From positions 32,106 to 96,105 of the forward strand of contig JBBTRH010000013.1 of the NCBI GenBank assembly GCA_038065275.1: a DNA stretch of 64,000 bases. Direction: 5' to 3'. This stretch comes from Patescibacteria group bacterium (GTDB lineage: Bacteria; Patescibacteriota; Patescibacteriia; SBBC01; CAIJZX01). The notes beneath the pieces are model-generated. The model had not been told where the DNA came from. It did no database searches and worked only from the letters and a program-made list of their open reading frames with translations. Of this stretch, positions 11,064-55,707 are shown piece after piece (within the stretch, counting starts at the first letter, position 1; each line of letters opens with the position of its first letter). The position numbers and the translations under genes were made by a program.

Positions 11064-11146
11064 ATCCCGTTAGAAACTACCTCTAATCGGCGTTGAATAC
11101 ATAGGGAAGAGATGTTGTGTCCCGCACTAGTTTCTAACGGGACATA
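11064..11146. repeat. long inverted-repeat element (ATCCCGTTAGAAACTAC ... TAGTTTCTAACGGGACAT) abutting the start codon
   Basis: Read directly. Same family as 34334, 36460 and 50223. Confidence 0.8.
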
Positions 11147-21519: not shown

Positions 21520-21802
21520 TCACTAATTTACACTAAACTATGACTTAGTTCGACGCTTTTTCTAACGCATCTCTAGCTCGAACGTTCTTTCTCCACACTA
21601 ATTGCCTAAACCGTTCTTCGGAACGGCATGGCATCACAATAACCCTGCAAGGTATAGAGCTCCTAGTCAGAGCATCCTTGCAGGGTCATGCGCCGAAAGG
21701 TGTATGGGTGGTCGTAAGGCCATCGCTGGCTAGGGGCTTTGTGTATATACGCACGATACACAAAAACCCTTCCATGATCACCTATCAGAAAGGGAATTCT
21801 CT

Positions 21803-23968: not shown

Positions 23969-25031
23969 ACTCCTCTCTCAAAATTCCCCGCTTCAACGCC
24001 GTAAAATCCGCCGCCTGCTTCGCCTGCAATTCCTGAAGTGCGCGGGATTTTTCGGAAAGCGCATCAAGCTTTTCAACAATCATTTTTTGTTCTACAAGGG
24101 AAGGAAGCGGAATATCCAATTTTGAATATTGTGAAATCCAATAACGTTTATGTGAAGAGTGATCTAGGTTAATAGTTTGCATCAAGTAAAACAAATACCT
24201 TGTATCTGCAACCTCCCTCTTGGCATGTAATATTTTCATTGCTGACGATTTTACCTTGAATGGAAAATCTACGTATTGGATTGCTGTAGTAAAGTCATCA
24301 AATATTATTACCGGCAGCTTTTCTTTTGGAAAGATATTTTCTGTTTCATTTGTGTTTCCTAAAATAAAAGTTTTGCCCGCGGTCAACACCGGCGTTTTAA
24401 ACGAATCAATGTAATTTTTGGAACGGACTATGTATTTGCCTGGTTGTTCATAATCTAAGGCATCCTCCAGTTTTATTTTCTGCCACCCCTTCTCTTCTCC
24501 CTCCTCAAACACCCCATGCAATGCCGCGGGCAACAGTTGCGCGGCAAGTCTCGCCGACTCCGCACGAAGTCGGGATGTTTCGTCAATTTTTGCAAATTGC
24601 TGTTCTATTTTCGCGACGATCTTCTTTTGTTCGACGAGGGGTGGGACTTTGACTTCCAAATTTGAATATTCTGAAATCCAGTAACGTTTATGGGTTGCAT
24701 GATTAACATGCAACGTCTGCAATAACAAATAGAAGTATTTAGGATCCGCAATGCCCTCTTTCGGGTGTAGAATCTTCATTGCCGAAGATTTTACCTTGAA
24801 TTGAAAGGTGACAAATTTAGTCGCGGTGGTGAAATCATCAAAGATAATTACTGGCAGCCTCTCGGAGGGAAATATATTGTCCTTTTCGGCAGTATTCCCT
24901 AAAACAAAAGTTTTTCCAGCCGTTAGCACAGGAGTTTGATAATCCTTATTGTAGTGCTTAGTTTTTACGATATACTTTGTAGGCTGCTCGTAATCTAGCA
25001 CTTCACCGAGTTTTTTTGTGGGGTAGGTCAT
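23955..25031 (-). CDS. hsdS: type I restriction-modification specificity subunit HsdS
   Basis: Two duplicated target-recognition halves (YEQPxKYIVxxKxY...VLTAGKTFxLGNT...LPVIIFDDFTTA repeated) separated by a coiled-coil spacer. Confidence 0.85.
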   Translation of the reverse strand: MTYPTKKLGEVLDYEQPTKYIVKTKHYNKDYQTPVLTAGKTFVLGNTAEKDNIFPSERLPVIIFDDFTTATKFVTFQFKVKSSAMKILHPKEGIADPKYFYLLLQTLHVNHATHKRYWISEYSNLEVKVPPLVEQKKIVAKIEQQFAKIDETSRLRAESARLAAQLLPAALHGVFEEGEEKGWQKIKLEDALDYEQPGKYIVRSKNYIDSFKTPVLTAGKTFILGNTNETENIFPKEKLPVIIFDDFTTAIQYVDFPFKVKSSAMKILHAKREVADTRYLFYLMQTINLDHSSHKRYWISQYSKLDIPLPSLVEQKMIVEKLDALSEKSRALQELQAKQAADFTALKRGILREEFESE

Positions 25032-25952
25032 TTATTCGTCGTCTTTTTGGTACTTGATACGATTTTCATTTTTTTTAATTAGGTGTAAACATGCCAACAA
25101 GGTCGCATAGTAAAAGTAAAACATCCAACTAAGCCAAACCGTCTTATCATAATTTGTTTTCTGTTGCTTATTGGCGTGACGAATTCCAAAGTTGTTAGCT
25201 ATATTAAATAGATCGCTTTCATCCTTTGAGTTAAGAACTTTTTCAATTTTTGGTTTTAAGTGCTCAAAACAATCAGCAAGAGCACGGATCGCATCCTCTC
25301 GGTCACTTATTGTTGAGCCATATTTTCTAAATTTGTTTGCCGCATGTTCCATTTTTTCCCTTACCGTTACGTCGCCTGTGGGGACCGGCGATTCAGAAAT
25401 ATTTCGTAAGTGGGATGGTAACAAAGTCAATATTTCACCTTTTGTACTTAGCTCAAAACCGTCTCCATAGTCGTTAAGGAATTGGTTTATCTCTTGAGCA
25501 AATTCAATGGGGCCTAATCCCAAATCATCAAAACGTGTATAGTGCCAACCACAACTATTCCAATTATGGTAAGTGGCGCCTTGTTCAAGGGGTAATGAAA
25601 TATGATCAAAAAAGAATTCGATAATATCGAACAAATCATCTTCGGAATATCCCTTATACTTCTCCGAAAACGGCCAAACATTTGCCCTCCGAAGCCTACG
25701 AAGTACATATCCTTCGATATTTGTTCCGACTTTCCCTGGAATATCCCCGTCTGTACAGTTAGTGCCAAGGAATTCCTGAAAGTACCCTCGCGTTGAAAAG
25801 TCTTGCCAAATACTAAAAACAATTTCTTTCAAAGAATCGAGAGAGATTTTTTGTGAGTGGTCTTTTCTTAAAGAATAGTATTTTCTTGCCACAATGGTGA
25901 TGCTATGGATTGCAATACTTTTTGTAGAGCTTACGGGTAGTAACCACAGCAC
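25032..25952 (-). CDS. uncharacterised protein nested in the type I R-M operon (candidate defence/Abi component; REKMEH resembles an HEPN Rx4H motif)
   Basis: 306 aa. Start abuts the hsdS start (25031/25032). No known domain recognised. Confidence 0.45.
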   Translation of the reverse strand: MLWLLPVSSTKSIAIHSITIVARKYYSLRKDHSQKISLDSLKEIVFSIWQDFSTRGYFQEFLGTNCTDGDIPGKVGTNIEGYVLRRLRRANVWPFSEKYKGYSEDDLFDIIEFFFDHISLPLEQGATYHNWNSCGWHYTRFDDLGLGPIEFAQEINQFLNDYGDGFELSTKGEILTLLPSHLRNISESPVPTGDVTVREKMEHAANKFRKYGSTISDREDAIRALADCFEHLKPKIEKVLNSKDESDLFNIANNFGIRHANKQQKTNYDKTVWLSWMFYFYYATLLACLHLIKKNENRIKYQKDDE

Positions 25953-26790
25953 TCTCCACTTTGAGACTTTTTAGATAATCTTCGCTTGGAATCTTATAGT
26001 CTTTGTGCACAAACTTATTTGCCTCCACTCTTATTTGTTCGATATCATCGCATACCTGTTCAAGAAGTTCTTTGTCCTCGTGAAAGTCTGTAGATTTTGA
26101 TCGTATATTTGACAGAAGTAATTCGAGTCCACGATAACGGCCTTTGTTTTTATCATACCAAATTTCATGATTACCTTGATTGTACGAGCCATTAACGATC
26201 TTCGGAAATACAATTTCGCAAATTCTAACCACCAACGCCTCTAACAATTTTCGACTAAGTATTATTACTGCGAGCAGCTGTCCATTTAAATAGGACTCAT
26301 TAATCTCTTTGCGAATATAATCAAGAAACAAATCATTAAAATCATATGGAAGGTAGTCCGGCCCAACAAAATCTTCTTCAATTTCTAGAACTGATAATTT
26401 TTTACTTGCATTATCGAAATTAACACCCGTTGCCCGAAGAAGGTTAACTATTAATTGATGCCAGTTTTTAATGTACTCGCCATAATAGTTCCATCCATCG
26501 TTTCGGGTACCGATTATTTTTGAGTCAAAAACAATTTCTTGAAGTATTGGGAGGTATTTGTATGAAGGAACCGTTTGCATGAAGTTAGCAAAATCATAAT
26601 TTGGTTCACTCATGAAGGAGTACAATGGAATACTATATGGCGATCCTCCTGCAGCTAGTTCTGAATACTTTCCACTGTTGTATTCTATCCCGAACTTCTT
26701 GAGAAAAATTTTAAAGTCTTCCGCACTATAGCAGTGTATGTATAATCGCTCAGCGTACACCCAGATCTCTTGGTTGAGTTTAAGACTCAT
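25903..26790 (-). CDS. uncharacterised protein nested in the type I R-M operon (candidate defence/Abi component; DUF4145/HEPN-like is possible)
   Basis: 295 aa. Start overlaps the hsdM stop (ATGA, 26787-26790). C-terminal helical region with RVEANKFVH. Confidence 0.45.
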   Translation of the reverse strand: MSLKLNQEIWVYAERLYIHCYSAEDFKIFLKKFGIEYNSGKYSELAAGGSPYSIPLYSFMSEPNYDFANFMQTVPSYKYLPILQEIVFDSKIIGTRNDGWNYYGEYIKNWHQLIVNLLRATGVNFDNASKKLSVLEIEEDFVGPDYLPYDFNDLFLDYIRKEINESYLNGQLLAVIILSRKLLEALVVRICEIVFPKIVNGSYNQGNHEIWYDKNKGRYRGLELLLSNIRSKSTDFHEDKELLEQVCDDIEQIRVEANKFVHKDYKIPSEDYLKSLKVESAVVTTRKLYKKYCNP

Positions 26791-28208
26791 AAAAGTTTCT
26801 CAATTTCGGTCAACATTACCGAAATATGACTCTCCGTATTTTGCATTTCTTTTAATAGCCCCTTAGGAGTTTTATGATCGGTCGCAATTCCAGCGACCGG
26901 ATTCTTACAATCCAAATTGTAATTCCGCTTCTGAATTTCTTTGATCGACACTTTCCACGCATGCTCATTCGTTTTCCGATTCTTCCACCATACCTTCACT
27001 GGTTCAAACTCTTCGCTTCGGATCGGCCGTCCTTTCGTGTATTGCTTCATGCCTTCTGGCAACGGCAATTCGTAGTACCAAATCTCTTTGGTCGGCGTGC
27101 CTTTTTGGAAAAACAGCAGATTCGTATTGACGCCAGCATACGGATTAAAGACGCCTTGCGGGAGACGAACGATCGTTTGGAGATTACATTTTTCGAGAAG
27201 CTCCCGTTTAATTGCCGTTTTCACGCCCTCGCCAAAGAGCGTTCCGTCGGGCAGGACAATCCCCGCTCGGCCGGTTGGCTTCAGTAAATTCATGAACAGC
27301 ACGAGGAAAAGGTCGGCGGTTTCTTTCGTCCGAAATTCGCGCGGGAAGTTCTGCTCGGTGCCATCCTTTACATATCCTCCAAACGGTGGATTTGCAAGGA
27401 TAATATCAACACGGTCTTTTGGACCATACTCGCGCAATGGCTTCGAGAGGGCATCGCCACGATGAATCTGGTCAGGCGCTTCAACGCCGCGCAGAATAAG
27501 GTTTGTCACCGCGAGCGTAAACGGGAGTTGCTTTAATTCGTTCCCATGCAGCGATTGTTGCAGACGCTGCTCTTCCTTGCGCGTTTTGACCTGGGTACGA
27601 ATATGTTCAAGAGCACTGACAAGGAATCCGCCAGTCCCACAGGCCGGATCGAGAACGATTTCACCGAGCTTCGGGTTAACCATCTCAACCACAAATTTTG
27701 TAAGCGCTCGTGGAGTATAGAATTCTCCGTAGTTTCCAGCGCTTTGCAGCTCCTTGAGGAGATGTTCGTAAATATCATTGAACTCGTGTCGGTCCCCTTG
27801 CTTATTAAAATCGACTTCGTTCAGTTTATTGACGACTTGCCGGATGAGCGTTCCGGACTTCATGTAATTATAAGAGTCAGCAAAAACCTCTTTGATCAGG
27901 AGACCACGCGTGTCGTCGGTTGCGACCTTTAGATCTTTTAATCCGGGAAAAAGTTGATTGGTAATAAAATTCAACAAGTCGTCACCAGTTATTCCTTCCG
28001 GATCTGCGGCCCAGTTTCGCCAGCGAAGTTTTTTTGGAATTGCTGAAACATACTTCGGATTAACGAGTTCAGCAAATGTTTCTTGATCATCAATAATTTT
28101 CAAGAACAACATCCAGACGAGTTGATTCAACCGCTGTGCGTCACCGTCGACGCCCTGGTCTTTCCACATAATGTCTTGTATCGCCTTGATAACGGCTTGA
28201 AGTGACAT
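26787..28208 (-). CDS. hsdM: type I restriction-modification N6-adenine DNA methyltransferase HsdM
   Basis: Motif I LDPACGTGGF and motif IV LANPPFGG. HsdM N-terminal domain. Confidence 0.92.
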   Translation of the reverse strand: MSLQAVIKAIQDIMWKDQGVDGDAQRLNQLVWMLFLKIIDDQETFAELVNPKYVSAIPKKLRWRNWAADPEGITGDDLLNFITNQLFPGLKDLKVATDDTRGLLIKEVFADSYNYMKSGTLIRQVVNKLNEVDFNKQGDRHEFNDIYEHLLKELQSAGNYGEFYTPRALTKFVVEMVNPKLGEIVLDPACGTGGFLVSALEHIRTQVKTRKEEQRLQQSLHGNELKQLPFTLAVTNLILRGVEAPDQIHRGDALSKPLREYGPKDRVDIILANPPFGGYVKDGTEQNFPREFRTKETADLFLVLFMNLLKPTGRAGIVLPDGTLFGEGVKTAIKRELLEKCNLQTIVRLPQGVFNPYAGVNTNLLFFQKGTPTKEIWYYELPLPEGMKQYTKGRPIRSEEFEPVKVWWKNRKTNEHAWKVSIKEIQKRNYNLDCKNPVAGIATDHKTPKGLLKEMQNTESHISVMLTEIEKLL

Positions 28209-28211
28209 AGA

Positions 28212-30569
28212 TTAGGCGTAGAGTGTTTCTTGAATTTTGTTGATGACGACGAAGTATTGCTCTCGACCACCGAAGATATCATTCACGATTTGCACCGGCG
28301 TGCCGAATGATGTAAACGGCGACACCTCAAGGTCTTTAATATCATCAATCGCCGTGATGCCTTGATCTTCATATTTCTCGAGTAAGGCATCAATCACCTC
28401 GCGGGCTTTCCCTTCGTACTTCGCAAAGTAATCGAGCTTCTTCACATTATTCGCCCGTTCTTTCCGGGTCAGCGGCGTTTTTCCGTACGCAACGTGACAA
28501 ATGAGGTCAAACGGGTCCAGACCTTTGCCAACTTCAGCTGCGATGTCATCAAAGAACACACCCCGTTGTTCAAGTTCGGTGATGATCGCCTCTTTCTTGT
28601 CAGCTTTTGTCCAGGCAGTCAAAAACTCATCAAGCGATCGATATTCTTTGAGGATATTCTGTTTCGTGTAATCCTTCAGCGATTCCGTAATGAGCTTCCC
28701 ATCTTCACCAATATACTGAACGCGTTCGTTAATCACCTGAACCGGAACGTCGCGCACTACGTACTTTTTGACTGGCTCACCGCCAATCGGGGGCCATGGA
28801 CTAATAAGGGTACCTCCTGGTTCTTGCCCGGGTGTCCCTGTACCTCCGTTCTCCGGGGGTTCTACTGGCGGAACAATTGGATCTCCTCCTTTGGGCTCGT
28901 AAATAACAACTGGATCACCGTCAAAGTCAGGATCGGCAAACAGTTCCGTCACGCCCCGGAAGTCGAGAATCGTAAAGAATAGTTTTCCGTAATCTTCGCG
29001 CACACGGGTGCCGCGTCCGATGATCTGCTTGAATTCGGTCATGGATTGAATATTTGCATCCAGGACGATCAGCTTGCACGTCTGCGCATCGACGCCCGTG
29101 GTCATCAGTTTTGATGTCGTGGCAATCACCGGGTATGGACTTTCTGGATCGATAAAGTGGTCAAGTTCACCAGCCGATTCTGGGTTATCGCCCGTAATCC
29201 TGACGACGTAGCGATGATTTGCTCCAGCGAGTTCCGGGTTCGCGTTGACGAGCGCCTGTCGCATTCGTTCAGCGTGATCGATGTCGACGCAGAAGACAAT
29301 AACTTTCTGCATCGGATCGGTGGCCTGCATGTATTCGGTAATCTTCTCGGCCACCAGTTTCGTCCGCTCATCAATCACCAATTCTCGATCAAAATCTTTT
29401 CGGTTGTAGATACGATCTGGAATCTCATTCCCATGAACATCCGTCTTTCCTTGTTCTGGGCGGTAGCCCTCAACATCGCGATCAAACGTCACACGTATGA
29501 CTTTGTACGGCGCGAGAAATCCATCATCAATGCCCTGGCGGAGTGAATAGGTATAGATTGGTTCACCAAAATACGTTTGGGTCGAGATATCTTTCGTTTC
29601 TTTCGGCGTAGCTGTTAACCCAATCTGGGTCGCGCTTTGGTAGTAGTCTAAGACATCGTGCCACAAGGCATTTTCCCGTGCGCTGCCGCGATGGCACTCG
29701 TCGATAATGACGAGATCGAAGAAGTCAGGTGAAAACTGCTTGAACGTCTGTTTCTCTTCTTCAACTCCGGTCACGCTTTGATACAGCGCGAGATATATTT
29801 CGTAGGATTTATCTGCGTTGCGATTTTTGATCTTGTACATCTTATCGCCAAACGGCTTGAAGTCGTTCATGACCGCTTGGTCAGCTAAAATGTTCCTATC
29901 CACGAGAAAGAGGATGCGTTTGGCTGTTTTTGCTTTCCATAACCGCCAGATGATTTGAAATGCCGTATACGTTTTCCCCGTTCCGGTCGCCATAACCAAC
30001 AGCAAGCGTTTTTGCCCTTTCGTAATTGCTTCGATGGTTCGATTAATGGCGACGCGTTGAAAATATCGCGGCTCTTTTCCGTTCAGCTCCTGGAAGTAGT
30101 CTTGTTCAACGATCGATCGGGCGTCTGAAGTAATTTGATGGTTGGCAAGATACTGCTGATAGAGGTCTTCCGGACTTGGAAATGCATCTAAAGCGATTTC
30201 TTCTTCGTGCACTTTTCCCTTCGGAAGACGAACGTGGGTTAAGAATCCGCTTCCGTTCGAACTGTAGACGAAAGGAATATCAAGCACATCTGCGTAGCCG
30301 AGGGCTTGCTGCATTCCATCACCCACGCCGTAACTCGCATCTTTCGCTTCAATGATTGCCAATGGGAGATTATTTTTGTAGTAAAGAATGTAGTCCGCGC
30401 GCTTTTTTTCACCTCGTGTCACGGTTTTACCACGAACAATGATCCGGCCAGCGGTGAACGAAACCTCTTCCCGAATTTGGGTCTGCAAATCCCATCCAGC
30501 TTTTACCAAAGCAGGGGTTATATATTTCGTACAAATATCGCGTTCGGACAATGATTCTTTAGCCACCAT
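28212..30569 (-). CDS. hsdR: type I restriction endonuclease subunit HsdR (compact form)
   Basis: N-terminal PD-(D/E)xK (AIIEAKDA). SF2 helicase motifs MATGTGKT and IIDECHRG. Pro/Gly-rich linker before the C-terminal domain. Confidence 0.9.
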   Translation of the reverse strand: MVAKESLSERDICTKYITPALVKAGWDLQTQIREEVSFTAGRIIVRGKTVTRGEKKRADYILYYKNNLPLAIIEAKDASYGVGDGMQQALGYADVLDIPFVYSSNGSGFLTHVRLPKGKVHEEEIALDAFPSPEDLYQQYLANHQITSDARSIVEQDYFQELNGKEPRYFQRVAINRTIEAITKGQKRLLLVMATGTGKTYTAFQIIWRLWKAKTAKRILFLVDRNILADQAVMNDFKPFGDKMYKIKNRNADKSYEIYLALYQSVTGVEEEKQTFKQFSPDFFDLVIIDECHRGSARENALWHDVLDYYQSATQIGLTATPKETKDISTQTYFGEPIYTYSLRQGIDDGFLAPYKVIRVTFDRDVEGYRPEQGKTDVHGNEIPDRIYNRKDFDRELVIDERTKLVAEKITEYMQATDPMQKVIVFCVDIDHAERMRQALVNANPELAGANHRYVVRITGDNPESAGELDHFIDPESPYPVIATTSKLMTTGVDAQTCKLIVLDANIQSMTEFKQIIGRGTRVREDYGKLFFTILDFRGVTELFADPDFDGDPVVIYEPKGGDPIVPPVEPPENGGTGTPGQEPGGTLISPWPPIGGEPVKKYVVRDVPVQVINERVQYIGEDGKLITESLKDYTKQNILKEYRSLDEFLTAWTKADKKEAIITELEQRGVFFDDIAAEVGKGLDPFDLICHVAYGKTPLTRKERANNVKKLDYFAKYEGKAREVIDALLEKYEDQGITAIDDIKDLEVSPFTSFGTPVQIVNDIFGGREQYFVVINKIQETLYA

Positions 30570-30668
30570 AGCAACAATTTACTCCTTTTTCGCTAAGAAA
30601 TCAAGGAAAACAGATGTCGGAGTGAGCACGGTGACGTAAGCCACCGTGCTCAAAACCTTTCGGTTATC

Positions 30669-30959
30669 TCAACGACATTCGACGAGGCTAAGGAGGTTAT
30701 TTGTCTCCCGCCCATCCGAGACGGTACGAACGAATGGGTTCAGGTTTCGTGAGACTGCCGTTTGGACATACACCTTATGCCCGAAGGCATCTGTCACATA
30801 GGCAATCCCATGCTGGTCTTTGATCCAATTGTATAATTGGATCCGCGACCACTTTCCCTGAATCCCGGTATCGTCTTCAACCCACCCGAGAAACGAGATC
30901 GCCTCATGAGGGTTGTCATGGTAACCGTTATCCTTATTGATGCAGGTAATCCGGATCAT
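30669..30959 (-). CDS. DUF3892 family small protein
   Basis: MIRITCINKDNG... and C-terminal ...NNLLSLVEC match the DUF3892 pattern as remembered. Confidence 0.5.
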   Translation of the reverse strand: MIRITCINKDNGYHDNPHEAISFLGWVEDDTGIQGKWSRIQLYNWIKDQHGIAYVTDAFGHKVYVQTAVSRNLNPFVRTVSDGRETNNLLSLVECR

Positions 30960-30971
30960 ACGATTCGAGGG

Positions 30972-31214
30972 TTAGTGTTTCGTGTCATGGGACGAGCGCG
31001 GGTCGTTACCGGGCGAGACTGTATCGCTATCCCGAATCGACCCCTTCGGGCTGTGAATACGGACTTCACCGCCACCGCTATTTGCTGACATCTCTTTGGC
31101 GGCTTTCTCGGCTTCTTTCTGAGTGTCAAAGTACCCGCTGACGCGACCAGCGCCCTCGCGCTTTGCACCCCATTTATCGATCTCTTTGTTCTTCGTGACG
31201 TGATAGTTGGCCAT
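30972..31214 (-). CDS. DUF2188 family small protein (ORF-track extension to 31490 is probably not translated)
   Basis: MANYHVTKNKEIDKWGAKREGAGRVSGYFDTQKEAEKAAKEMS...GNDP matches the DUF2188 consensus as remembered. Confidence 0.5.
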   Translation of the reverse strand: MANYHVTKNKEIDKWGAKREGAGRVSGYFDTQKEAEKAAKEMSANSGGGEVRIHSPKGSIRDSDTVSPGNDPRSSHDTKH

Positions 31215-31526
31215 AGTATTGTATGACGTAGCTAATGATAAGATCCATGACGTTTGATTCGGAAGGATTGTTTCCCAAGCATGGGCGGAACCAACCAGGC
31301 TAGATTGTTTGTGATAACGGGCAAATAGATAAGCAAGTAAGAGTGTGGTATAATCCGAGTACCAAAAAGTCTGCCATCCTAGCGATTTTTTTGGCCTGAC
31401 AGGGGCGTTAACCCTGTTCGGATTTGAAGGAACATGGTCGTCTCGACCATGTTCCTTTGCTTCATAGTCGAGCGCCGTGACTTCTAGCAAATAGGGTAGC
31501 AGGGTGGCTTGAAAATGTCAAAGAGC

Positions 31527-31564
31527 AATGTACAGTTGACAGTACATTATTATCATGGTAGGAT
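31527..31564 (+). promoter_or_regulatory. sigma70-type promoter (TTGACA-17-TAGGAT) with an overlapping inverted repeat AATGTACA-N7-TGTACATT (candidate XRE operator)
   Basis: TTGACA at 31536-31541. 17-nt spacer. TAGGAT at 31559-31564, 6 nt before the ATG at 31571. Palindrome flanks the -35. Confidence 0.5.
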
Positions 31565-31570
31565 ATCCAC

Positions 31571-31909
31571 ATGGACATATCCCCAACCATGATGCTTCAT
31601 AGGGGTATCGGGAGGAAAATTCGTGAACGCCGGAAGGAGCGCAACCTACGTCAAGCCGAACTAGCTGTAGCAATACACTGTTCGCGTGCAACCTTGGTCA
31701 ATGTTGAGAGTGGGCGACAACAGCCCACGTTGGATTTGCTTTACAAACTTTCATCTCAGTTGCATTGCTCATATATAGATTTACTACCCACTGAAGAAGA
31801 GATTGAAAAAATGAAGACCGAAGCGGGGTCTGCTATCATGACGCCCGAAAAGGAAAAAAGTATCATTTCTGATTTAAAGGCTAAAGCAAAGGAAAGGGAG
31901 GTGAATTGA
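31571..31909 (+). CDS. XRE-family helix-turn-helix transcriptional regulator
   Basis: HTH_3 pattern LRQAELAVAIHCSRATLVNVESGRQQP. Confidence 0.8.
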   Translation: MDISPTMMLHRGIGRKIRERRKERNLRQAELAVAIHCSRATLVNVESGRQQPTLDLLYKLSSQLHCSYIDLLPTEEEIEKMKTEAGSAIMTPEKEKSIISDLKAKAKEREVN

Positions 31910-32424
31910 AAATGACAACACCAGTAATAAATATTGAGCAGGAAACGAAAAAAGTCCGGGTAGCCTGTGGAGCTACCACAATACCCGTTGACGTTAGAAA
32001 GATCATTGGGTCATTAGGTCTCAAGTTAATGTCAACTGACCTGAATGATTCACTATCAGGAGCTTTCTTAAGGAAAGAAAAAATTGTGGTTGTAAACAAG
32101 AATCACTCATTACTCCGAAAAAGATTTACCATTGCCCACGAAATTGGACACTACAAATTACACGAAACTGAGAATGACAAAGAATTTATTGATGGGATAT
32201 TTAAAAGAGAAAAAGGGGCAAACGCTAACACTCTAAAAGTTGAGATGGAAGCAAATCAATTTGCCGCCTCCCTCTTAATGCCAAGGGACGAAATTATTCA
32301 AGAGTTCCATAAGCAGGATCCAGTTACAGGCGATTACATTACTGATTTATCGGAGAAGTTCAAAGTGAGTCATGAATCTATGAACTACCGGTTAATCAAT
32401 TTAGGGCTTACAGTTCCGCAATAG
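31906..32424 (+). CDS. ImmA/IrrE-family metallopeptidase (DUF955)
   Basis: HEIGH zinc motif (FTIAHEIGHYKLH). Overlaps the XRE gene stop (ATGA). Classic XRE-ImmA pair. Confidence 0.78.
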   Translation: MKMTTPVINIEQETKKVRVACGATTIPVDVRKIIGSLGLKLMSTDLNDSLSGAFLRKEKIVVVNKNHSLLRKRFTIAHEIGHYKLHETENDKEFIDGIFKREKGANANTLKVEMEANQFAASLLMPRDEIIQEFHKQDPVTGDYITDLSEKFKVSHESMNYRLINLGLTVPQ

Positions 32425-33127: not shown

Positions 33128-34333
33128 CTAGTAATCCCTCAACTTCTTCATGTGTTGATGCTGTTGGATTTTCTCCAGCGCTTTCGATTCGATCTGACGG
33201 ATCCGTTCGCGCGTCACCCCGAACTCCTGGCCGACTTCTTCCAGCGTGTGCGCCACGCCGTCGTTTAAGCCAAAACGCATTTCCAGAATTTTCTGTTCGC
33301 GCGGACTGAGCGACTCAATGATTCGGCGCACGTCGTCCCGCAACAGCTGGAGAGCCGCGACTTTGTCCGGCGACACCGTCTTGACGTCCTCGATGAAGTC
33401 GCCGAGCGTCGAGTCCTCGTCGTCTTCGCCGACTGAGGTTTCCAGCGAGACGGTGTCCTGGGAAATTTTCATGACGTGGCGTATTTTGTCGATCGGCTCG
33501 CCCATTTCGGCGGCGATTTCTTCCGGCAGCGGCTCCCGGCCGAGGTCTTGAATCAACTGCCGCTGGATTTGCTGAAATTTATTGATCGTCTCGACCATGT
33601 GGACCGGGATGCGGATGGTCCGCGACTGGTCAGCCAGGGCGCGGGTGATGGCCTGGCGGATCCACCAGGTGGCGTAAGTCGAGAACTTGTAGCCCTTGCG
33701 ATAGTCGAATTTTTCCACCGCCCGAAACAGGCCGATATTCCCTTCTTGAATTAAGTCCAGCAACGACAGCGAGCGGCCGGTGAACTTCTTGGCGATCGAG
33801 ACCACCAAACGCAAGTTGGCTTCCACCAGGCGCTTCGAGGCTTCAACGTCGCCCGCTTCTTTCCGCTTGGCCAGCGACACCTCGTCTCCGGCCGTCAGCA
33901 ACGGCACCTTGCCGATTTCCCGCAGGTACATTTGGATCGAATCATTGGAGATGTCGCCCAGGTCGAAATGGCGCTCGTCGAGCGGCAAATGCTTCTTGGA
34001 ATGGCTGGACTCGAGGAAAGCCGGCTTGATCGGCTCGAGGATACCGCCAGCGCTTTCGACGATCTGGATGCTGTGTTTTTCGAACTCATCGAGGGCCGCT
34101 TCGTACTGGTCGATGTAGGCTTCCAGGTCGGGGAAGGCGTACAGCAGTTCCGTCTCCGTCAGGAACCCGCGCTGGCGGCCTTTGCGGACCAGCTCACGAA
34201 CCGTATCCAGCGGAACGACGGGGACGGCGGCGCGTTTACCGCGCTTGTCCGCTTTCAATGTTTTAGCGCGCCGAACCGGCGGACGTCTCTTTATCGGCGC
34301 TCGCTTGACGCGCTTGGTGGTTTTCTTAGGCAT
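33128..34333 (-). CDS. rpoD: RNA polymerase sigma-70 factor RpoD (primary sigma)
   Basis: Regions 2-4 conserved ([40 protein letters not shown]). Downstream of dnaG. Confidence 0.93.
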
Positions 34334-34440
34334 CCCGTTAGAAGTAAAATAAATCAGGTTGACTAGCTATTCGCCAGTTGGTTTCATCCACCGTCCCATT
34401 ATTGGTACACCCAAGTTCAATTACTTCTAACGGGAGCATG
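34334..34440. repeat. long inverted-repeat element (CCCGTTAGAAGTAA ... TTACTTCTAACGGG) abutting the rpoD start codon
   Basis: 14-bp arms read directly. Flanked by CATG on both sides. Confidence 0.8.
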
Positions 34441-34617: not shown

Positions 34618-36459
34618 CTAGGCCAGCGACCGAAGTTGGTCGGTCACGGCCTGGACTCGGGCCAGCAAGTCGGTTAGTTGGCTGGCGTCGGCGCCGTCCA
34701 GTACCGGACGGTTCTGGGCGCCGCCTGATTGTTCCAGGCGGCGGATGTCGGCCTCGAGCCGACGGAGTTCGAGCGATAGAGCGCGCCGTTTCAGGGCCGC
34801 TACCATCGTTAAAATATCGTGTTCGACGCTCGGCGTAATGCCCGTCGGGTACTCATGGTCCCCGCGGAGGGTTAGAAGCGTAAACAGCTCCTGTTGTTCC
34901 GGGTCGAGTGACGATGCTTGATCCGCCAGGGCCTGGCGGGTAGAAAAGTGTTTTTCACTATACCAGATGACCAGGGTCTTGTACAGGGTTTGCAGGTCGG
35001 GGCCGACGAGCATGTCCGGATCGAACTGCCCGGACAGTTGGTCAAGAAGCTTCGGCTCACGCAGGAGGAGCGCGATCAATCGCTCCGACACCGCCCGAAA
35101 TCGATCCGTCCGCCGGTCGGGGGATTCCGCCGATTCCTTGACTGCGCTCGATGTCGCGACCGGCGCCGCCTTCGGTTTCGCCGACATTGATTGGCGGAGG
35201 ACCGCGACATCAACCCGCACCAGGTCGGCCAGGTGCTGGAGATAATGGGCCTGTTCGACCTGATCGCCGAGCTGGGCGATGATCGGCAGGAGGAATTTCA
35301 CTGCGGCCTTCTTATCGTCGACTTTGTTCAGGTCGCGGCCGCTCGTCGCTTCCTGGACGTAATACTCCATCACCGGCTGAGCCGCAACAATCGCCTTCTG
35401 CCAGGCCGGCAAGTCATGGCGGATGAGCTCGTCCGGATCTTTCCCCTGGCTCAGCCGCACGATGCGAACGTCCATCTTGGCCAGTAAAGCTTGATCGACG
35501 CCGCGGAGCGCCGCCTGAGCCCCGGCCGCGTCCTGGTCGAATGCTAACACCAGGTTTTGTGTGAATCGTTTCAGGAGTTGCACCTGATCGGCGGTCAAGG
35601 CGGTGCCGGATGAGGCCACCGCGTTGTTCACGCCCGCTTGGTGCGACATCAGGCAGTCCATCTGTCCTTCCACCAGCACCGCCCGGCCGGCGCGCTTGAT
35701 GTCCTGTTTCGCTTTGTCGAGCGCGTAGAGCACCCGACCTTTGTCGTAGACGATGGTTTGCGGCGAATTGATGTACTTGGCCGGGACCGGTCCTTGAGGA
35801 TCGATCAGCACCTCGAGCACCCGGCCGCTGAAACCGACCACCGTTCCGTGGACATCGCTGATCGGGAACATGATCCGGTTGCGGAAGCGGTCGTAGAAGC
35901 CGGCGCCGCGGTCTTTACGGATCGTTAACCCGGCTTGGAAAATATCATCGTCGGCAAATCCTTTTTTCTTAAGCGCTTGGTAAGTAATGTCCCATCCGGA
36001 CGGCGCGTAACCGACTCCGAAATCTTCAAGTGATGTTTCATTAACTTGCCGCTGGGCCAGATATTTTCGCGCCGGTTCAGCATCGGAAGTTTTTCGCAGT
36101 ACCTCTTGGTAGTACCGACTGACCCACCGCAGGACGTCAAGAACTTTCGTTCGCTGGGTTTGCTCCTCTTTGTTGTACTCGCGGAGCTGGACACCGGCGC
36201 GTTTGGCTAAGAGCCGCAGGGCTTCCGGAAAATCCAAACCTTCCTGCTCTTGGACAAAGGTGAAGATATCGCCGCCCTTCCCGCAACCGAAACAGTGCCA
36301 CGACCCCCGCTCCCGCGAGACCATGAACGACGGCGTCTTCTCGTTGTGGAACGGGCACTTGCCCTTCCAATTCGATCCGGCCGCTTTCAGCGGCACCGAC
36401 TCGCTGATGAAGTCAACGAGGTCGAGGCGCTGTTTGATATCCTCTACTGGAGTTGGCAT
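34618..36459 (-). CDS. dnaG: DNA primase DnaG
   Basis: CHC2 zinc finger CPFHNEKTPSFMVSRERGSWHCFGCG. TOPRIM domain. Confidence 0.93.
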   Translation of the reverse strand: MPTPVEDIKQRLDLVDFISESVPLKAAGSNWKGKCPFHNEKTPSFMVSRERGSWHCFGCGKGGDIFTFVQEQEGLDFPEALRLLAKRAGVQLREYNKEEQTQRTKVLDVLRWVSRYYQEVLRKTSDAEPARKYLAQRQVNETSLEDFGVGYAPSGWDITYQALKKKGFADDDIFQAGLTIRKDRGAGFYDRFRNRIMFPISDVHGTVVGFSGRVLEVLIDPQGPVPAKYINSPQTIVYDKGRVLYALDKAKQDIKRAGRAVLVEGQMDCLMSHQAGVNNAVASSGTALTADQVQLLKRFTQNLVLAFDQDAAGAQAALRGVDQALLAKMDVRIVRLSQGKDPDELIRHDLPAWQKAIVAAQPVMEYYVQEATSGRDLNKVDDKKAAVKFLLPIIAQLGDQVEQAHYLQHLADLVRVDVAVLRQSMSAKPKAAPVATSSAVKESAESPDRRTDRFRAVSERLIALLLREPKLLDQLSGQFDPDMLVGPDLQTLYKTLVIWYSEKHFSTRQALADQASSLDPEQQELFTLLTLRGDHEYPTGITPSVEHDILTMVAALKRRALSLELRRLEADIRRLEQSGGAQNRPVLDGADASQLTDLLARVQAVTDQLRSLA

Positions 36460-36543
36460 GCCACATTAGAAACTACCTAAATGAGAAGCTATTTGCATAT
36501 GTATCGATTACCTTCGCCCCCATAGGTTTCTAACGGGGCATGG
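36460..36543. repeat. long inverted-repeat element (CCACATTAGAAACTACCT ... AGGTTTCTAACGGGGCATGG) abutting the dnaG start codon
   Basis: Imperfect arms (CCACA vs CCCCG). Same family as the others. Confidence 0.7.
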
Positions 36544-39688: not shown

Positions 39689-39950
39689 GGCTCAAGCCTA
39701 CCACAACACTAAGAAAAAACGAACACCGGTCTCGGCCTAGAGAAAAGTGCTGCCCTCTCCTGCCCAGAGCGGAGGATGCGAGATTCCCCGTACCACTCCG
39801 CTACGCTCCGGGTGCGTGGCAGGCGAACTCCCGATACCTTGCCGTCTACTCCCCTTATTCGTCCGGCGCGGAGGGCGAGACCCCGCACTATGCGCTTCGC
39901 GCAAATGCGGAGCAAGGATTCGAACGAAGTTACTTCAGATTCGGGCCGGG

Positions 39951-40035
39951 CGGAGAGAGAGGGATTCGAACCCTCGAACCCTTGCGGGTTGCACGCTTTC
40001 CAAGCGTGTGCACTCGACCACTATGCGATCTCTCC
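39951..40035 (-). tRNA. tRNA-Ser (anticodon GGA), long variable arm
   Basis: Hand-folded: acceptor GGAGAGA/UCUCUCC, D-stem GCAU/GUGC, anticodon stem CACGC/GCGUG with loop UUGGAAA, long variable arm, T-arm GAGGG-UUCGAAU-CCCUC. Confidence 0.75.
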
Positions 40036-40384
40036 GCCCGGCCCATATCTTTCTAACGCGTTTAACTAGAAAATCACATACGACATTTTTCTTTCGGCGG
40101 AATATTCACGTTCGGTTTCACCGGAAAAGTATATGCATTAGACCACGGCGCCTGTCCCGAATCCGAGTGTAACGAGGGCTTCGAGACGAACCCTCCGCTC
40201 CGCGCAAAACTCGAATGTACTTTCTACTAACTTGTATTGTAATATCCTTGTTCACGGCAGGTGTCACCCTCCGTGTCAACAGACAGTAGTCTACCATAGG
40301 CCAAATGTCAACGGAAAGAAAAAACTCCCGCCGTGGAACGTCAGACGTTCCGGGGAACGGGAGTACGGCATGATGGAGGACGAT

Positions 40385-40871: not shown

Positions 40872-40992
40872 GTCAACCCAGCACCACCCAGCACCACTTT
40901 TGTCTAGTTTTAGCGTGCGTTAGGTATCTTGCTTTCTAAGTATAATGAGTTTTTCTGTGGCAAAAAGCAAGGAAAAGTGGTGCTGGGTTAAC
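40872..40992. repeat. MITE-like element copy 1 (TIR GTCAACCCAGCACCAC...GTGGTGCTGGGTTAAC; internal 10-nt duplication CCCAGCACCA)
   Basis: About 93% identical to copy 3 at 50404..50514. Right end fuses to a CCCCGTTAGAG half-site. Confidence 0.75.
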
Positions 40993-40996
40993 CCCG

Positions 40997-43009
40997 TTAG
41001 AGCCGTCGGTCAGCCGACCGGCTGAGTTGCCTTGCCCCTGCCAGGGGGCTGACTGCCCCGCCGGCGGCTCGCAGGTCAGTGACCGCGGCCGGCGGCGTGA
41101 CGTCGACGCTCAAGAGGAACAACGCGTCGGATGAGTTTGCCGTGACGCTGGTCGCCACGGAACCGTCATTCACCTCGGGCGCCGCCGTCCCCAGGATTTT
41201 TTGATAGGGTTTTTCCAGCGTCACCGTCTGCGGCGCGGCTGACGGATTGACCAGCACCGCGCCGTGATCGAAGTCGCGCCGGTAGACGTTAGTCAGCCCC
41301 GTTTGGAAATGCACGTCATCGAGCCAGACGGCGCCGGCCGCCGCCGCCAAGTCGAAGCGGACCGTGGCGTTGGCGTTTGCGGTTGACGGCGTCAGCGGCA
41401 GTTGATACTGTCGCCATGCGGTCGTGATCGGCAGGCTGACGGTGCCCGCTCCGCCGGTGTCAAGCACGAGGTCAATCGTCCGCGCCGCCGAGGCTTTAGC
41501 CCAGAACGTCAGGCCGTAGGTCAGCCCGGCGGTGACGGGAAAAGTGTCAGTCGCCGCGACCGAGGTGAAATTGTGGAACGAGCTGCTTTGACCGACGTCG
41601 GCGCGGAGACTGCGAGCGCCGACTGCTACGGTCGAATCATCAGTCGTGATCGTCGACTGGGTCGCGGGGGCCGTGACCGCCGTCCAGCCGGCCAGCCCGT
41701 TTTCGAATCCGTTATTCGCTGTTATCAAGTCGGCGGCCGGATTAAGCCAGACCATCTGGTAAGCCTCGGTCGTCGGTTGTCCGAGCCAACCGGTATCGCT
41801 CGCATTCGTGGTCGATCGGCCGGTCGCCAGGTTAACGGCGTATTCGTCATACCACCATTGATCGTACCGGAAGCCGTTGAGGCGCGGGTCCGTGACGCGA
41901 GCGCCGTTGCCGAAAAAACTGAATCCCGCTCCGAGTGAAGCGCTACCCAACCCAAAACGTTCCAGTCGGCGGTCGATCGCCGTGGTCCCGGTCGTGGAAG
42001 CGGCGTTCGATGAGATGAAGTTGTATTGCGGAGCTCGATAGCGGAGTTTGTCTTGAAAGTAGCCGCCGACTGGCCAGTACATGTTCGTGTACCAGGTCCC
42101 GCCCTCTTGTTGGGGGAAATACTCCTGCATCCAGCCGTTAAACGATCCATAGAGGCGGGGCGCGCCGGGAGTGCAGTTGCCGCTGATGATGAAATTCGGG
42201 TCGTCGATCAACGACCGGACTGTCTCTCCGAGAATGGTCTGCCCGTTGGTCCAGCCCTGAAAGAATTCCGCCGCCGAAACGTAACCGGCGCGGACGTAGT
42301 CAAATTTCTTGGTCGGCGTTTCGATCCACGGAATATCCGGGCAATAGACATCAAGAAACAGGCCGTCCCAGAGCCGCTGGCCAGCCGCATTGCGGGCATT
42401 GGCGACGGTGCCGGCCATCAGCTGGGCGATTGCCGCCGCCGTGGTGTAGGTGTATGAACCGTCCGGATTTTGAATCCGTTTAGCCAGATTGACGTTCACC
42501 AGATCGGCGTCGGTCGAGTGAATGCTCGGGTCGGCCGGCGGGTCGCTTTGGTAGTAGAGCCAACTGGCGTTCGGGCCGGGCGTCGGTCCCGCCCCGTCGT
42601 TGATCAACGTCCAGTACTGCTTGAACCAAGTGGATGAGTCGTAGTTGCCATACCAGATAAGGTGACCCAAAACATAGGCCAAGAGCTTGATCGCGGGGTT
42701 TCGTTGTCGCAATTGGCCGATCACGTCGGGGCGCAGATCAGTCAGCGGCGTGGCATCGATCGTCACCAACTGGTATTTCGCCGTTTGATCCAACGTTGAG
42801 GCGTTGAGCGTGCCGTCGTCGTTGAGTAGCGGCCAGCCCGAGGCCCGCACGCTGTCGTAGAGCCCCAGCCGCGGATAATTCAACTCTCCGCCCGCCGACA
42901 CCGGACCGGCCTGGACAATCGGGGTTTGGTGTGTACCGCTGATCAGCCACGCCGCCAACCCAAGCAAGCCAGTGATGATTACAATCGGGACGCGCAGTTT
43001 TATCGACAT
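40997..43009 (-). CDS. secreted putative glycoside hydrolase-like protein with C-terminal carbohydrate-binding-like domain
   Basis: Signal/TM at the N-terminus. Trp/Tyr/Gly/Asn-rich composition typical of TIM-barrel GH-like enzymes. C-terminal NGFENGLAGWT block resembles CBM4/9. No catalytic motif assigned. Confidence 0.4.
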   Translation of the reverse strand: MSIKLRVPIVIITGLLGLAAWLISGTHQTPIVQAGPVSAGGELNYPRLGLYDSVRASGWPLLNDDGTLNASTLDQTAKYQLVTIDATPLTDLRPDVIGQLRQRNPAIKLLAYVLGHLIWYGNYDSSTWFKQYWTLINDGAGPTPGPNASWLYYQSDPPADPSIHSTDADLVNVNLAKRIQNPDGSYTYTTAAAIAQLMAGTVANARNAAGQRLWDGLFLDVYCPDIPWIETPTKKFDYVRAGYVSAAEFFQGWTNGQTILGETVRSLIDDPNFIISGNCTPGAPRLYGSFNGWMQEYFPQQEGGTWYTNMYWPVGGYFQDKLRYRAPQYNFISSNAASTTGTTAIDRRLERFGLGSASLGAGFSFFGNGARVTDPRLNGFRYDQWWYDEYAVNLATGRSTTNASDTGWLGQPTTEAYQMVWLNPAADLITANNGFENGLAGWTAVTAPATQSTITTDDSTVAVGARSLRADVGQSSSFHNFTSVAATDTFPVTAGLTYGLTFWAKASAARTIDLVLDTGGAGTVSLPITTAWRQYQLPLTPSTANANATVRFDLAAAAGAVWLDDVHFQTGLTNVYRRDFDHGAVLVNPSAAPQTVTLEKPYQKILGTAAPEVNDGSVATSVTANSSDALFLLSVDVTPPAAVTDLRAAGGAVSPLAGARQLSRSADRRL

Positions 43010-49931: not shown

Positions 49932-50222
49932 CTAGTTCAATATTCCGACCAGGTCGTCCTCATCGGCGATCATGTAGTCGGCACCGTCGATCTTGACCTT
50001 TTCGGTGCCGTACTTTTTTAGAATCACTTTGTCGCCGACCTTGATCTCCGCCGGTAGTTCCTTCCCATGGTCGATTTTCGGCGCGCCGACGGCGATGATT
50101 TCGCCGCGTTCGAGCTCTTCCTTCTCGACCGTATCCGGCAGGACGATGCCCGACTTGGTCATTTTCTCTTCTTTGATCAGCTTGATCAGGGTCTTGCCCC
50201 GCATCGGTTTTAGTGTCGTCAT
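49932..50222 (-). CDS. groES: co-chaperonin GroES
   Basis: 96 aa with a typical GroES mobile loop. Directly upstream of groEL. Confidence 0.95.
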   Translation of the reverse strand: MTTLKPMRGKTLIKLIKEEKMTKSGIVLPDTVEKEELERGEIIAVGAPKIDHGKELPAEIKVGDKVILKKYGTEKVKIDGADYMIADEDDLVGILN

Positions 50223-50304
50223 ATCCCGTTAGAGACTTAGTTCAATAAGATGTTGTGCCCCATCAGGTTACCCTTTGACGAAGGGGTCTCTAACGGGACA
50301 TGGG
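50223..50304. repeat. long inverted-repeat element (TCCCGTTAGAGAC ... GTCTCTAACGGGA) abutting the groES start codon
   Basis: 13-bp arms read directly. Lies in the groES leader between the CIRCE operator and the ATG. Confidence 0.8.
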
Positions 50305-50373: not shown

Positions 50374-50400
50374 TTAGCAGTCTACAGGATAGAGTGCTAA
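50374..50400. promoter_or_regulatory. CIRCE operator (HrcA binding site) TTAGCAGTC-N9-GAGTGCTAA
   Basis: One mismatch to the TTAGCACTC-N9-GAGTGCTAA consensus. About 150 nt upstream of the groES ATG. Abuts MITE copy 3, whose terminus gives a TTGACA on the groES-sense strand. Confidence 0.7.
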
Positions 50401-50403
50401 TCT

Positions 50404-50514
50404 GTCAACCCAGCACCACTTTTGTCTAGTTTTAGCGTGCGCTAGGTATCTTGCTTTCTGAGTTTAATGAGTTTTTCTGCGGCAATAAGCGAGGAAAAGT
50501 GGTGCTGGGTCAAC
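50404..50514. repeat. MITE-like element copy 3 (TIR GTCAACCCAGCACCACTTTTG...GGAAAAGTGGTGCTGGGTCAAC)
   Basis: About 93% identical to copy 1. Internal hairpin CTTGCTTT...AAAGCAAG and a TATAAT hexamer. Confidence 0.75.
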
Positions 50515-54559: not shown

Positions 54560-55707
54560 TCGGCTAAACCAAGTTCAACTAAACGGCGCCGGAACCGCTC
54601 ATTATATTCCTGGCGCCGATCCAGCTCATGAAATTTCAGCACGTCTTCCGAGATAACGACTTCCGTGGTACCGAGTTTTGCTTTGCTCTCAATGTTCTTC
54701 TCCATCTTCTTCAACTGCCGGTCACGCGCCCATGATTCAAGCCAGTGTCCAATTGGCGATGCCAAGAAAATTTCGTAAAACTGCTTGATGACGCGCAGTC
54801 CCGGGTTCGGTACCAGGAGTCTCGTCGGCCATTTCCAGACCCAAGCGTTTGGCAGAAGCTTCATCACCCAGTCGTTCGCTTGGCGGTATCGCTCGTAGGT
54901 ACCGTCATCGAGCAACGGCACCGCTTGCGCCGTCCAGAAGGTGAAGTGGATGTCCGGATCCGCACTTTTCAACGCCGAAAAATCCATGCCGTCAGTCGTG
55001 ACATAAAAACTCAAGCACACGCGGCCGGCGATGGTCGTTCCGTGCCGTCGATAGCCGAGCAGTGACACGATGCCGGTGACGATCATCCGCGCGATCCAGA
55101 TGTGGCGCGGGGCGGTGACGATCAGGAGATCGATGTCGCTGGCTGGCCGGGCGTTATCGATAGCCAGCGTGTTCACCACCGCGATCATCTTGACGAACGG
55201 GACTAGTTCAAGGAACCGCGCGGTCGAGGCGGCGCGGCGCCAAAGTTTGGCGTTGGCCGGCATCCGTTCGATTCTGGTATCGACGATCGACTGCCGCCCC
55301 GGGCAGAATACGTAGGCGCCGCGCCGCTCGAGTTTCCCCTCTTTGGCCAGCATCTCAACTTCGCGCTGGACGTCAGCGACGGTGACCGCGCTCAAGTTCG
55401 AGTTCGGGGGAGGATACAACCACCGCCACGCCTCCTCGACCGTCAACGGATAATCAAATGTGTCGTAGTAAACCAGCGCGCGGATGATTGAGGCTTGAAG
55501 AATTGACCCCGTTAGAGGCGAGCGTGGCTTACCAGCCCAGCCAGTATAATCTAGGATGCTGGGAAAATCAGCAGATCTTTCAGTGTCAGTATTCGCCTCT
55601 AACGGGGTTGACGTACGGTACATAATATGATAGGGTCGGGGCGCATAATTCCCGGCATCCCAGTGACTGGGGACTGAGGAAGTATAGCACCCCCGCTCTT
55701 TACCCAT
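54556..55707 (-). CDS. nucleotidyltransferase-fold-like hypothetical protein (true start probably near 55470-55500; the 5' part of the ORF overlaps a repeat element)
   Basis: [15 protein letters not shown] resembles an NTase hG[GS]x9-13Dh[DE]h motif. The N-terminal ~65 codons of the ORF are low-complexity and span the inverted repeat 55503..55612. Confidence 0.4.
55503..55612. repeat. long inverted-repeat element, long variant (TTGACCCCGTTAGAGGCGA ... TCGCCTCTAACGGGGTTGAC)
   Basis: 19/20-bp arms read directly. Loop contains TATAAT. The right-arm TTGAC could serve as a -35 for csrA. Confidence 0.8.

Follow-up and report, generated by a model that had tools for sequence, protein, structure and literature searches.

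Several families of hairpin-forming miniature transposable elements with inverted repeats (MITEs) are known in bacteria, among them Correia/NEMIS in Neisseria, ERIC/IRU in enterobacteria, Chunjie in Geobacter and Nezha in cyanobacteria. Their copies are numerous and scattered, short and without coding capacity, and each has terminal inverted repeats and a brief target duplication; they insert beside genes and are co-transcribed as stable hairpins. Rickettsia palindromic elements are typically in-frame inserts in coding sequence and are confined to Rickettsiales, repetitive extragenic palindromes (REPs) have GTAG at their head and are mostly found at the 3' ends of genes, and REPIN and integron attC systems make no target duplication. 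Here we analyse a family of palindromes (family 1) of which six copies, 73–101 bp long, lie in a 64-kb stretch of a Patescibacteria genome (contig JBBTRH010000013.1; the window), four of them at the starts of rpoD, dnaG, groES and a 42-residue open reading frame (ORF). An earlier note on this DNA had read the repeats as a lineage-specific structured 5' leader, possibly a heat sensor. Our analysis indicates, with a probability of about 0.8, that they are instead copies of a small, non-coding, MITE-like mobile DNA palindrome.

Family 1 shares with the MITEs named above all the features just listed. It has no sequence relation to them and differs from them in that several phyla share its conserved 9-bp core, its copies lie precisely on start or stop codons with the codon inside the duplication, and the inner bases of its arms co-vary. 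The class of element is ordinary, but three of its traits are not: the cross-phylum core, the precise occupation of starts and stops of essential genes, and co-varying arms coupled with an avoidance of palindromic duplications. A literature search, which was incomplete and did not cover repeat databases, found neither a description of the element nor its arm sequences in a bacterial context, and the mobile-element family is apparently undescribed.

The ends of the element also invite comparison with a group of transposases. piggyBac makes a 4-bp, TTAA-type duplication and has CCC-type ends, and IS1380 is its prokaryotic sister group; piggyBac variants with TAAA, TCAA and TATG duplications have been reported, and in IS1247 the inverted repeats measure 16/13 bp and the duplication 5 bp. 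Because family 1 likewise has YCCC...GGGR ends, with a terminal repeat of ∼13 bp and a 4-bp duplication bounded by A/T (4–5 bp in IS1380), it could be moved in trans by a DDE transposase of the IS1380/piggyBac type, an assignment by analogy that we regard as doubtful. Unlike these elements, family 1 has an extra Y/R base between the duplication and CCC.

Anatomy and mobility of the family-1 palindrome

A species-representative genome collection (596 Gb) was scanned with the pattern CCCGTTAGA-N55-85-TCTAACGGG, giving at least 120 loci; copy statistics refer to 132 family-1 copies, drawn from the matches listed. The loci listed belong in their majority to Patescibacteria of the candidate phyla radiation (CPR), and also to Omnitrophota, Planctomycetota, Deltaproteobacteria and other metagenome-assembled genomes (MAGs). 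The same element is thus present in many phyla and is not, as had been supposed, specific to one lineage. The base outside each arm is complementary to its partner in 121 of the 132 copies (C/G in 79, T/A in 42), and in 73 copies the next four bases recur without mismatch as a direct repeat, mostly TNNA (TTTA/TAAA 22, TGAA/TTCA 21, TTGA/TCAA 8 and TCCA 6). A 6-bp duplication was considered and rejected: its outer bases pair as an inverted repeat in 67 of these 73, and direct-repeat identity holds in only about half. Within the arms, positions 10, 11 and 12 pair in 89%, 94% and 73% of copies (45%, 46% and 33% when shuffled) and the terminal Y/R bases in 92% (53% when shuffled); a range of 89–100% is cited within the 13-bp repeat, and beyond position 12 pairing is at background.

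The unit is therefore [4-bp duplication][Y CCCGTTAGA RRY ... RYY TCTAACGGG R][4-bp duplication], with a terminal inverted repeat of 13 bp (YCCCGTTAGA plus three variable bases); in search form, its bounding sequence is YCCCGTTAGARRY. Copies are 63–105 bp in length, except for one mini-copy of 29 bp, and hold no ORF. They are numerous and dispersed, with six in the 64 kb of the window, at least 130 in other genomes and, in some MAGs, several per 8-kb locus. The duplicated target usually lies in the context R/TNNA/Y. Palindromic duplications, by which the stem would be lengthened over the codons, are avoided: TTAA, TATA, TCGA and TGCA together were observed once against 13.8 expected among loci L001–L120, where TACA and TGTA were likewise absent.

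Comparison of orthologous sites points to insertion. A metagenome scan with the RpoD of the window retrieved 80 related loci, and the closest relatives among them (77–80% RpoD identity) have no element upstream of rpoD. The filled site in the window reads ...ttttttccATGC[T CCCG...CGGG]ATGCCTAAG (longer form ...aattttttccATGC[T CCCG...CGGG]ATGCCTAAG) and the empty site in locus L121 ...ttttttctgcATGCCAAAA (longer form ...aattttttctgcATGCCAAAA), the difference being the element and a duplicated ATGC. The dnaG site is empty in L121, L123 and L126, and in the more distant lineage of L196 and L198 an independent copy with an unrelated interior and a different duplication (ATGAGT...ATGAGT) sits on the dnaG start. 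Moreover, near-identical copies occur at separate sites within single MAGs (L020; L016/L010/L074; L103), and copies are nested in L198 and L209. At ∼1407–1542 of L198, a 29-bp mini-palindrome, TCCCGCTTAGAGAT-AA-ATCTCTAACGGGA, is inserted at TTAG within the arm of another copy, and two arms alone may therefore suffice for insertion. An 81-bp copy in L013 (5741–5821) lies in frame within fpg/mutM, adding 27 codons (TPLENASRLAAGSGGSIRVPLETQSLTG) in the N-terminal domain. Here family 1 resembles the Rickettsia elements, which are mobile palindromes tolerated in or at the edge of essential genes; unlike these, it is found mostly at the borders of genes, and its start-site copies are depleted of in-frame lengths. 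A few copies lie on contigs classed as viral, a further sign of mobility.

Some of these loci carry other repeats. In L016, a 3.1-kb segment with a 686-residue immunoglobulin-domain protein lies between 330-bp inverted repeats (2046–2369 and 4832–5155), each of which contains a family-1 copy; the segment could be invertible or recombined. It was rejected as an autonomous parent, since it carries the immunoglobulin-domain protein and not a transposase. In place of the element, L121 and L126 have, just ahead of the real dnaG start (∼150 nt upstream), a duplicate of the first 40–70 nt of the coding sequence and, after it, a conserved CCTTCGACA(C)GGCTCAGGRTCTCG. In L049 (4972–5059), the arms by our reading flank a tRNA-like sequence (anticodon CGT) whose acceptor stem continues into that of the element.

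Copies at gene borders

Five of the six palindromes in the window have exact arm pairs and one, at dnaG, is decayed. These copies and the features that they adjoin are as follows.

2603-2701: family-1 element in a divergent intergenic region, flanks TCAA 2599-2602 and TTGA 2702-2705
10935-11063, minus strand: 42-residue hydrophobic ORF
11065-11142: family-1 element at the start of this ORF, perfect 4-bp duplication CATA 11061-11064 and 11143-11146
33128-34333, minus strand: RpoD gene
34334-34435: family-1 element at the rpoD start, GCAT 34330-34333 (holding the rpoD start codon) repeated at 34436-34439
34618-36459, minus strand: DnaG gene
36461-36538: family-1 element at the dnaG start (the copy first flagged), flanks CATG 36457-36460 and CATG 36539-36542
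40991-41005, plus strand: solo family-1 arm, AACCCCGTTAGAGCC
49932-50222, minus strand: GroES gene
50224-50298: family-1 element at the groES start, flanks CATA 50220-50223 (holding the groES start codon) and CATG 50299-50302
50374-50400, minus strand: CIRCE-type operator, TTAGCAGTC-N9-GAGTGCTAA
55507-55607: family-1 element upstream of csrA, perfect duplication TTGA 55503-55506 and 55608-55611

As rpoD, dnaG, groES and the small ORF are all read from the minus strand, each truly begins at the 'CAT' to the left of its element, 0–2 nt away. The earlier note had placed the gene ATG directly after the 3' arm and had taken CATG at both ends for a built-in start codon; the plus-strand ATG is in fact the duplicated copy of the target, which contains the start codon. 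All four of the places that it named do hold an element, and the exact CCCGTTAGA...TCTAACGGG pairs that it reported are present at 11066–11141, 34334–34434 and 50225–50297. The arms of the flagged copy are not exact complements, however, and two more exact pairs (2604–2700 and 55508–55606) had been overlooked. Position on gene starts holds for four of the six copies, the other two adjoining TTGAC hexamers. The loops, described as unrelated, are not all so: those of the 11066 and 50225 copies have AGATGTTGTG(T/C)CCC in common. A mismatch-tolerant scan of the window added only the flagged site and one probable chance match at 7275.

The copies differ in how they meet their genes. The start codon of dnaG (36457–36459, minus strand) is contained in the left CATG flank of its element, the gene-proximal arm of which has decayed to C-CACATTAGA (36462–36470), with two mismatches to the family arm. 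This is the sole window copy with a palindromic duplication and with a decayed stem base, and it has the weakest predicted fold of the six (z −1.68); its upstream duplicated ATG opens an upstream ORF (uORF) of the form M-P-R-stop, ending at the TAG in the 5' arm. The rpoD copy has the 4-bp repeat GCAT/GCAT and has lost the left terminal base of the element. From its duplicated ATG (34439–34437, minus strand) a 33-codon uORF spans the whole element and stops 4 nt short of the rpoD ATG, on the TAA of the gene-proximal arm. Flanks of the groES copy agree at three of four bases (CATA vs CATG), and the duplication is perfect in three window copies, those at the small ORF, at dnaG and on the csrA side.

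The groES copy is located in the groES 5' leader, downstream of both the CIRCE operator and a promoter-like site that the operator overlaps (TTGACA 50408–50403, with TAGACT ending at 50379). Both lie upstream of the element (50374–50408); they place the start of groES transcription ahead of it and give the gene ordinary control of the HrcA type, so the element is within the leader and has not replaced the control of groES. In the divergent intergenic region, TTGACA at 2602–2597 (minus strand) is the −35 of a promoter-like site at 2602–2575; the right TTGA of the csrA-side copy forms TTGACG, a −35-like hexamer at which a simple promoter scan called no promoter. The solo arm supplies a stop codon, its TTA at 40997–40999 ending a 670-residue minus-strand ORF (40997–43009), and directly adjoins an element of a second palindromic family described below.

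RNA folds predicted for the six copies have energies of −28.5 to −58.4 kcal/mol (z-scores −1.7 to −8.2). The predicted stem encloses the AUG in the window copies, as the earlier note had proposed for the 3' arm. Rfam gave no match on the family-1 elements when the whole window was searched at the gathering score; at E≤5 the rpoD copy had no match and the groES copy a single weak one, to snoR127, which at 14.9 bits (E 4.2) fell short of the gathering score of 37 bits.

The preference for gene borders is general. Among the 132 copies, 55 adjoin the beginning of an ORF with 60 codons or more, 21 lie at a gene end only and 56 at neither; in 24 of the 55 start copies the stop codon of the upstream ORF is in or beside the left flank, an ATGA stop/start overlap having been split. 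At gene ends, the TAAA, TAGA and TGAA duplications contain the stop codon. In the same loci, start codons make up only ∼5% of the RTNNAY sites that are non-coding or in start register, which puts the excess at about eightfold, so that the association with start codons noticed earlier stands well above chance (38–42% of copies). In a Pfam scan of 30 downstream ORFs, 26 were recognisable genes. The first Pfam domain begins at residues 1–6 in many of them (e.g. PurD, Fmt, acetate kinase, RuvC, TyrRS, DnaA, L1, AtpA and Mur ligases), which identifies the adjacent ATG or GTG as the true start. TTGA/TCAA duplications regenerate TTGAC hexamers, as in the promoter-like site at 2602–2575. In every class of site the duplication restores the signal split by the insertion, so neighbouring genes remain intact. 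The start-codon excess may also reflect survivorship in compact genomes, because imprecise deletion cannot remove a copy from an essential border.

Translation across start-site copies and rival explanations

The explanation that we favour joins MITE identity, persistence at borders and translational tolerance, and we consider the whole probable. A non-autonomous cut-and-paste transposon inserts with duplication of 4 bp of target, and its copies persist mainly where the duplication regenerates a split signal. At start codons, ATGNAY in the window becomes ATG...element...ATG; the other persisting sites are overlapping stop/start ATGA, the stops TAAA, TAGA and TGAA, and the −35 hexamers TTGAC. 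In the mRNA of start-site copies the arms would fold into a stable stem, the base of which would set the upstream target copy (original leader or preceding stop codon) opposite the true AUG. Ribosomes initiating or terminating on the upstream copy might then hold the stem melted or pass on across its base, and the true AUG would thereby stay usable. Candidate routes for this coupling are a three-codon M-x-R-stop uORF (dnaG and, by our reading, groES and the small ORF), the 33-codon rpoD uORF and the end of the preceding cistron. The upstream copy would retain the native initiation context, such as the TATAAT 6–11 nt before the first ATG in many CPR copies and the T-rich leader at rpoD. Translational coupling as the explanation for tolerance at essential genes is tentative.

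Several properties set start-site copies apart and suggest that they are under selection. Arm position 12 pairs better in them than elsewhere (0.88 vs 0.63), and in-frame lengths are depleted (mod-3 classes 10/26/14, compared with 37/32/13 elsewhere). The uORF from the duplicated start extends to the 3' arm in 16 of 37 copies, against 7.0 expected, and 12 of these uORFs, that of rpoD included, stop at the arm TAA, 4 nt ahead of the AUG. An internal third arm-like motif adjoins the gene-distal arm in 12 of 14 strongly scoring cases; it would let the distal arm pair locally first, freeing the AUG-proximal arm. The co-variation of the arms, put forward earlier as the signature of a selected structure, is real across the 132 copies. 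It is not an RNA-specific signature, since stem mismatches oriented by the downstream gene comprise 10 G.U and 15 A.C and show no sense-strand RNA bias. Outside gene borders few copies were informative on duplication versus element orientation, and no link between the two was established. Taken together, the start-codon excess, the co-varying arms and the palindrome avoidance suggest selection on an RNA or DNA hairpin.

A number of results weigh against this explanation. The 2604 copy of the window has inverted flanks (TCAA/TTGA), not direct ones, and the window copies differ in length and interior, unlike a recent burst from a single master copy. A search of ∼2 Mb for arm pairs 0.6–3.5 kb apart, solo arms and recurrent neighbour proteins revealed only housekeeping genes and no autonomous copy; as no transposase was found there, the transposase family is a resemblance only. 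TTAA, the duplication of piggyBac proper, is never used by family 1 (0 observed vs 4.5 expected). Co-variation of the three inner arm positions is unexplained by simple descent and needs structural selection or arm-to-arm correction, and target sequence alone does not account for the eightfold start-codon excess. The uORF stops well within the element in 21 of 37 copies, so reinitiation is not the whole story. Finally, the orthologous pair in L196 and L198 differs at 2 of 49 positions in the arms and their neighbours and at ∼17 of 58 in the interior (hand count), which hints at in-situ selection of the arms beyond tolerance.

Selection by the host for a cis-regulatory RNA, whether a leader, a translational control element or an RNA thermometer hiding the start codon, would account for this arm conservation in L196/L198, for the co-varying arms and the stems that are predicted to enclose the AUG, for the better pairing of start-site copies and for a biased orientation of the element relative to the gene. 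Like ROSE/fourU thermometers and CIRCE/HrcA, moreover, the groES copy lies in the leader of a heat-shock gene with the start region paired. Known RNA thermometers are short, weak hairpins interrupted by mismatches, whereas the family-1 stems are perfect over 13–20 bp and, at −28 to −58 kcal/mol, far more stable; they are not conserved in orthologues, they have no Rfam match, and groES retains its own, separate CIRCE control. The downstream genes are an arbitrary housekeeping mix across phyla. Copies bear target duplications and occur at stop codons, within coding sequence and beside −35-like hexamers, where they may lie outside the transcript of the neighbouring gene if the hexamers are real −35 boxes. 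These copies, the empty rpoD and dnaG sites of the closest relatives and the lack of a G.U excess in the sense strand argue against a dedicated regulatory leader, and we judge such a role improbable. A promoter inside the element that would yield a leaderless mRNA from the second ATG was also rejected, the conserved 3' arm hexamer at −12 to −7 being RYYTCT.

The symmetric mismatch types and absence of strand bias would, together with co-varying arms and a variable interior, suit a single-stranded DNA hairpin that is recognised by its stem shape and moved by a REP/REPIN-RAYT-type HUH enzyme or an integron-like recombinase. Pairing of an arm with the third, internal copy can produce a small palindrome locally, and GTTAGA/TCTAAC resembles the integron core GTTRRRY/RYYYAAC. 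As in REPIN and attC, two conserved inverted arms enclose a variable spacer and structure seems to outweigh sequence. HUH and integron enzymes leave no target duplication, however, and 73 of the 132 copies have a perfect one. The arms are not self-palindromic, unlike those of REP/REPIN, and no GTAG-type head is present; on both strands they run GTTAGA...TCTAAC, the reverse of attC (RYYYAAC...GTTRRRY), and copies are single, at gene borders, with no cassette arrays. This origin is quite unlikely, and the anatomy does not fit attC, REPIN or invertible-promoter readings. We give equally little credence to a ribosome shunt or bypass, with take-off at the upstream copy of the codon and landing on the identical downstream copy, such that the insert is invisible in the protein. 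Take-off and landing sequences are identical by construction (e.g. ATGAAT...ATGAAT), a stable stem starts right after the duplicated codons, essential genes tolerate the insert, and palindromic duplications that would bury the codons are avoided. The gap of 73–105 nt nevertheless exceeds those known from established bypass cases, many copies lie outside any coding or leader context, and the enriched uORFs running to the arm TAA fit ordinary termination–reinitiation better. Precedents for a stable hairpin between translation signals and coding sequence that leaves expression unimpaired exist in the shunting of the cauliflower mosaic virus (CaMV) 35S leader, the bypass of T4 gene 60, mitochondrial 'byp' elements and the split ribosome-binding sites of T4 genes 25 and 38; among them are mobile inserts whose take-off and landing codons match. 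Their likeness to family 1 is an analogy, and to our knowledge no such mechanism has been described from these bacteria.

Chance similarity of short palindromes can practically be dismissed. Single 9-mers with one mismatch are not over-represented in the window (17 vs 13.1), and by our own estimate the 18-base gapped pattern would find a few hundred random matches in 596 Gb. The relaxed pair CGTTAGA-N30-60-TCTAACG, however, occurs twice in the window against 0.00 in shuffles, and the matches share features that were not queried: the terminal bases are complementary in 92%, 55% have a 4-bp direct repeat, and three further arm positions pair.

A second palindromic family and implications

A second family in the window has the same CCC...GGG ends as family 1, with the form CCCAGCACCAC(TTTT)...(AAAA)GTGGTGCTGGG and a length of ∼101–111 bp. 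Its copies are as follows.

40877-40987: family-2 copy, flanks TCAA/TTAA
47237-47339: family-2 copy
50409-50509: family-2 copy, duplication TCAA/TCAA

The −35 of the groES promoter-like site comes from a family-2 junction, GGG/TTGACA; such a junction, by our reading, also provides a −35-like hexamer for the plus-strand gene at 47411. Elsewhere in the window, the only Rfam matches were LOOT RNA (RF03000) at 21603–21724 on the plus strand (80.9 bits against a gathering score of 46.4) and two tRNAs. The tRNA at 39951–40035 is embedded in a 22-nt inverted repeat (39937–39958 and 40029–40050) that reaches past the acceptor stem. GC content is 44% at 24001–32000 and 53–59% in the rest of the window, and this segment is maybe an acquired island.

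The favoured explanation gives the element family a searchable definition, consisting of the 13-bp end, the 4-bp duplication and the preference for gene borders, for a family common to Patescibacteria, Omnitrophota, Planctomycetota and Deltaproteobacteria. Annotation is affected as well, since the elements give rise to spurious upstream starts and small ORFs and can pass for regulatory RNAs. The palindrome might even be an adaptation that makes the transposon translationally invisible, ribosomes being handed across the base of the hairpin, although we think this unlikely. Were it true, hand-over by coupled reinitiation, shunting or bypass could allow the element to spread onto the starts of essential genes, in many phyla and in genomes that are very compact, as a bacterial counterpart to viral ribosome shunting and the mitochondrial 'byp' elements; co-varying arms, palindrome avoidance, orientation bias and length-phase bias would then be the signatures of such selection. 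At rpoD, dnaG (where the arm is decayed), dnaA, rplA and groES, a stem of 13–20 bp ending 0–2 nt before the AUG poses the question of how these genes are translated. The evidence suggests that, if selection does act on the hairpin, these elements would be a natural system for studying how ribosomes reinitiate or are handed over across a structure.

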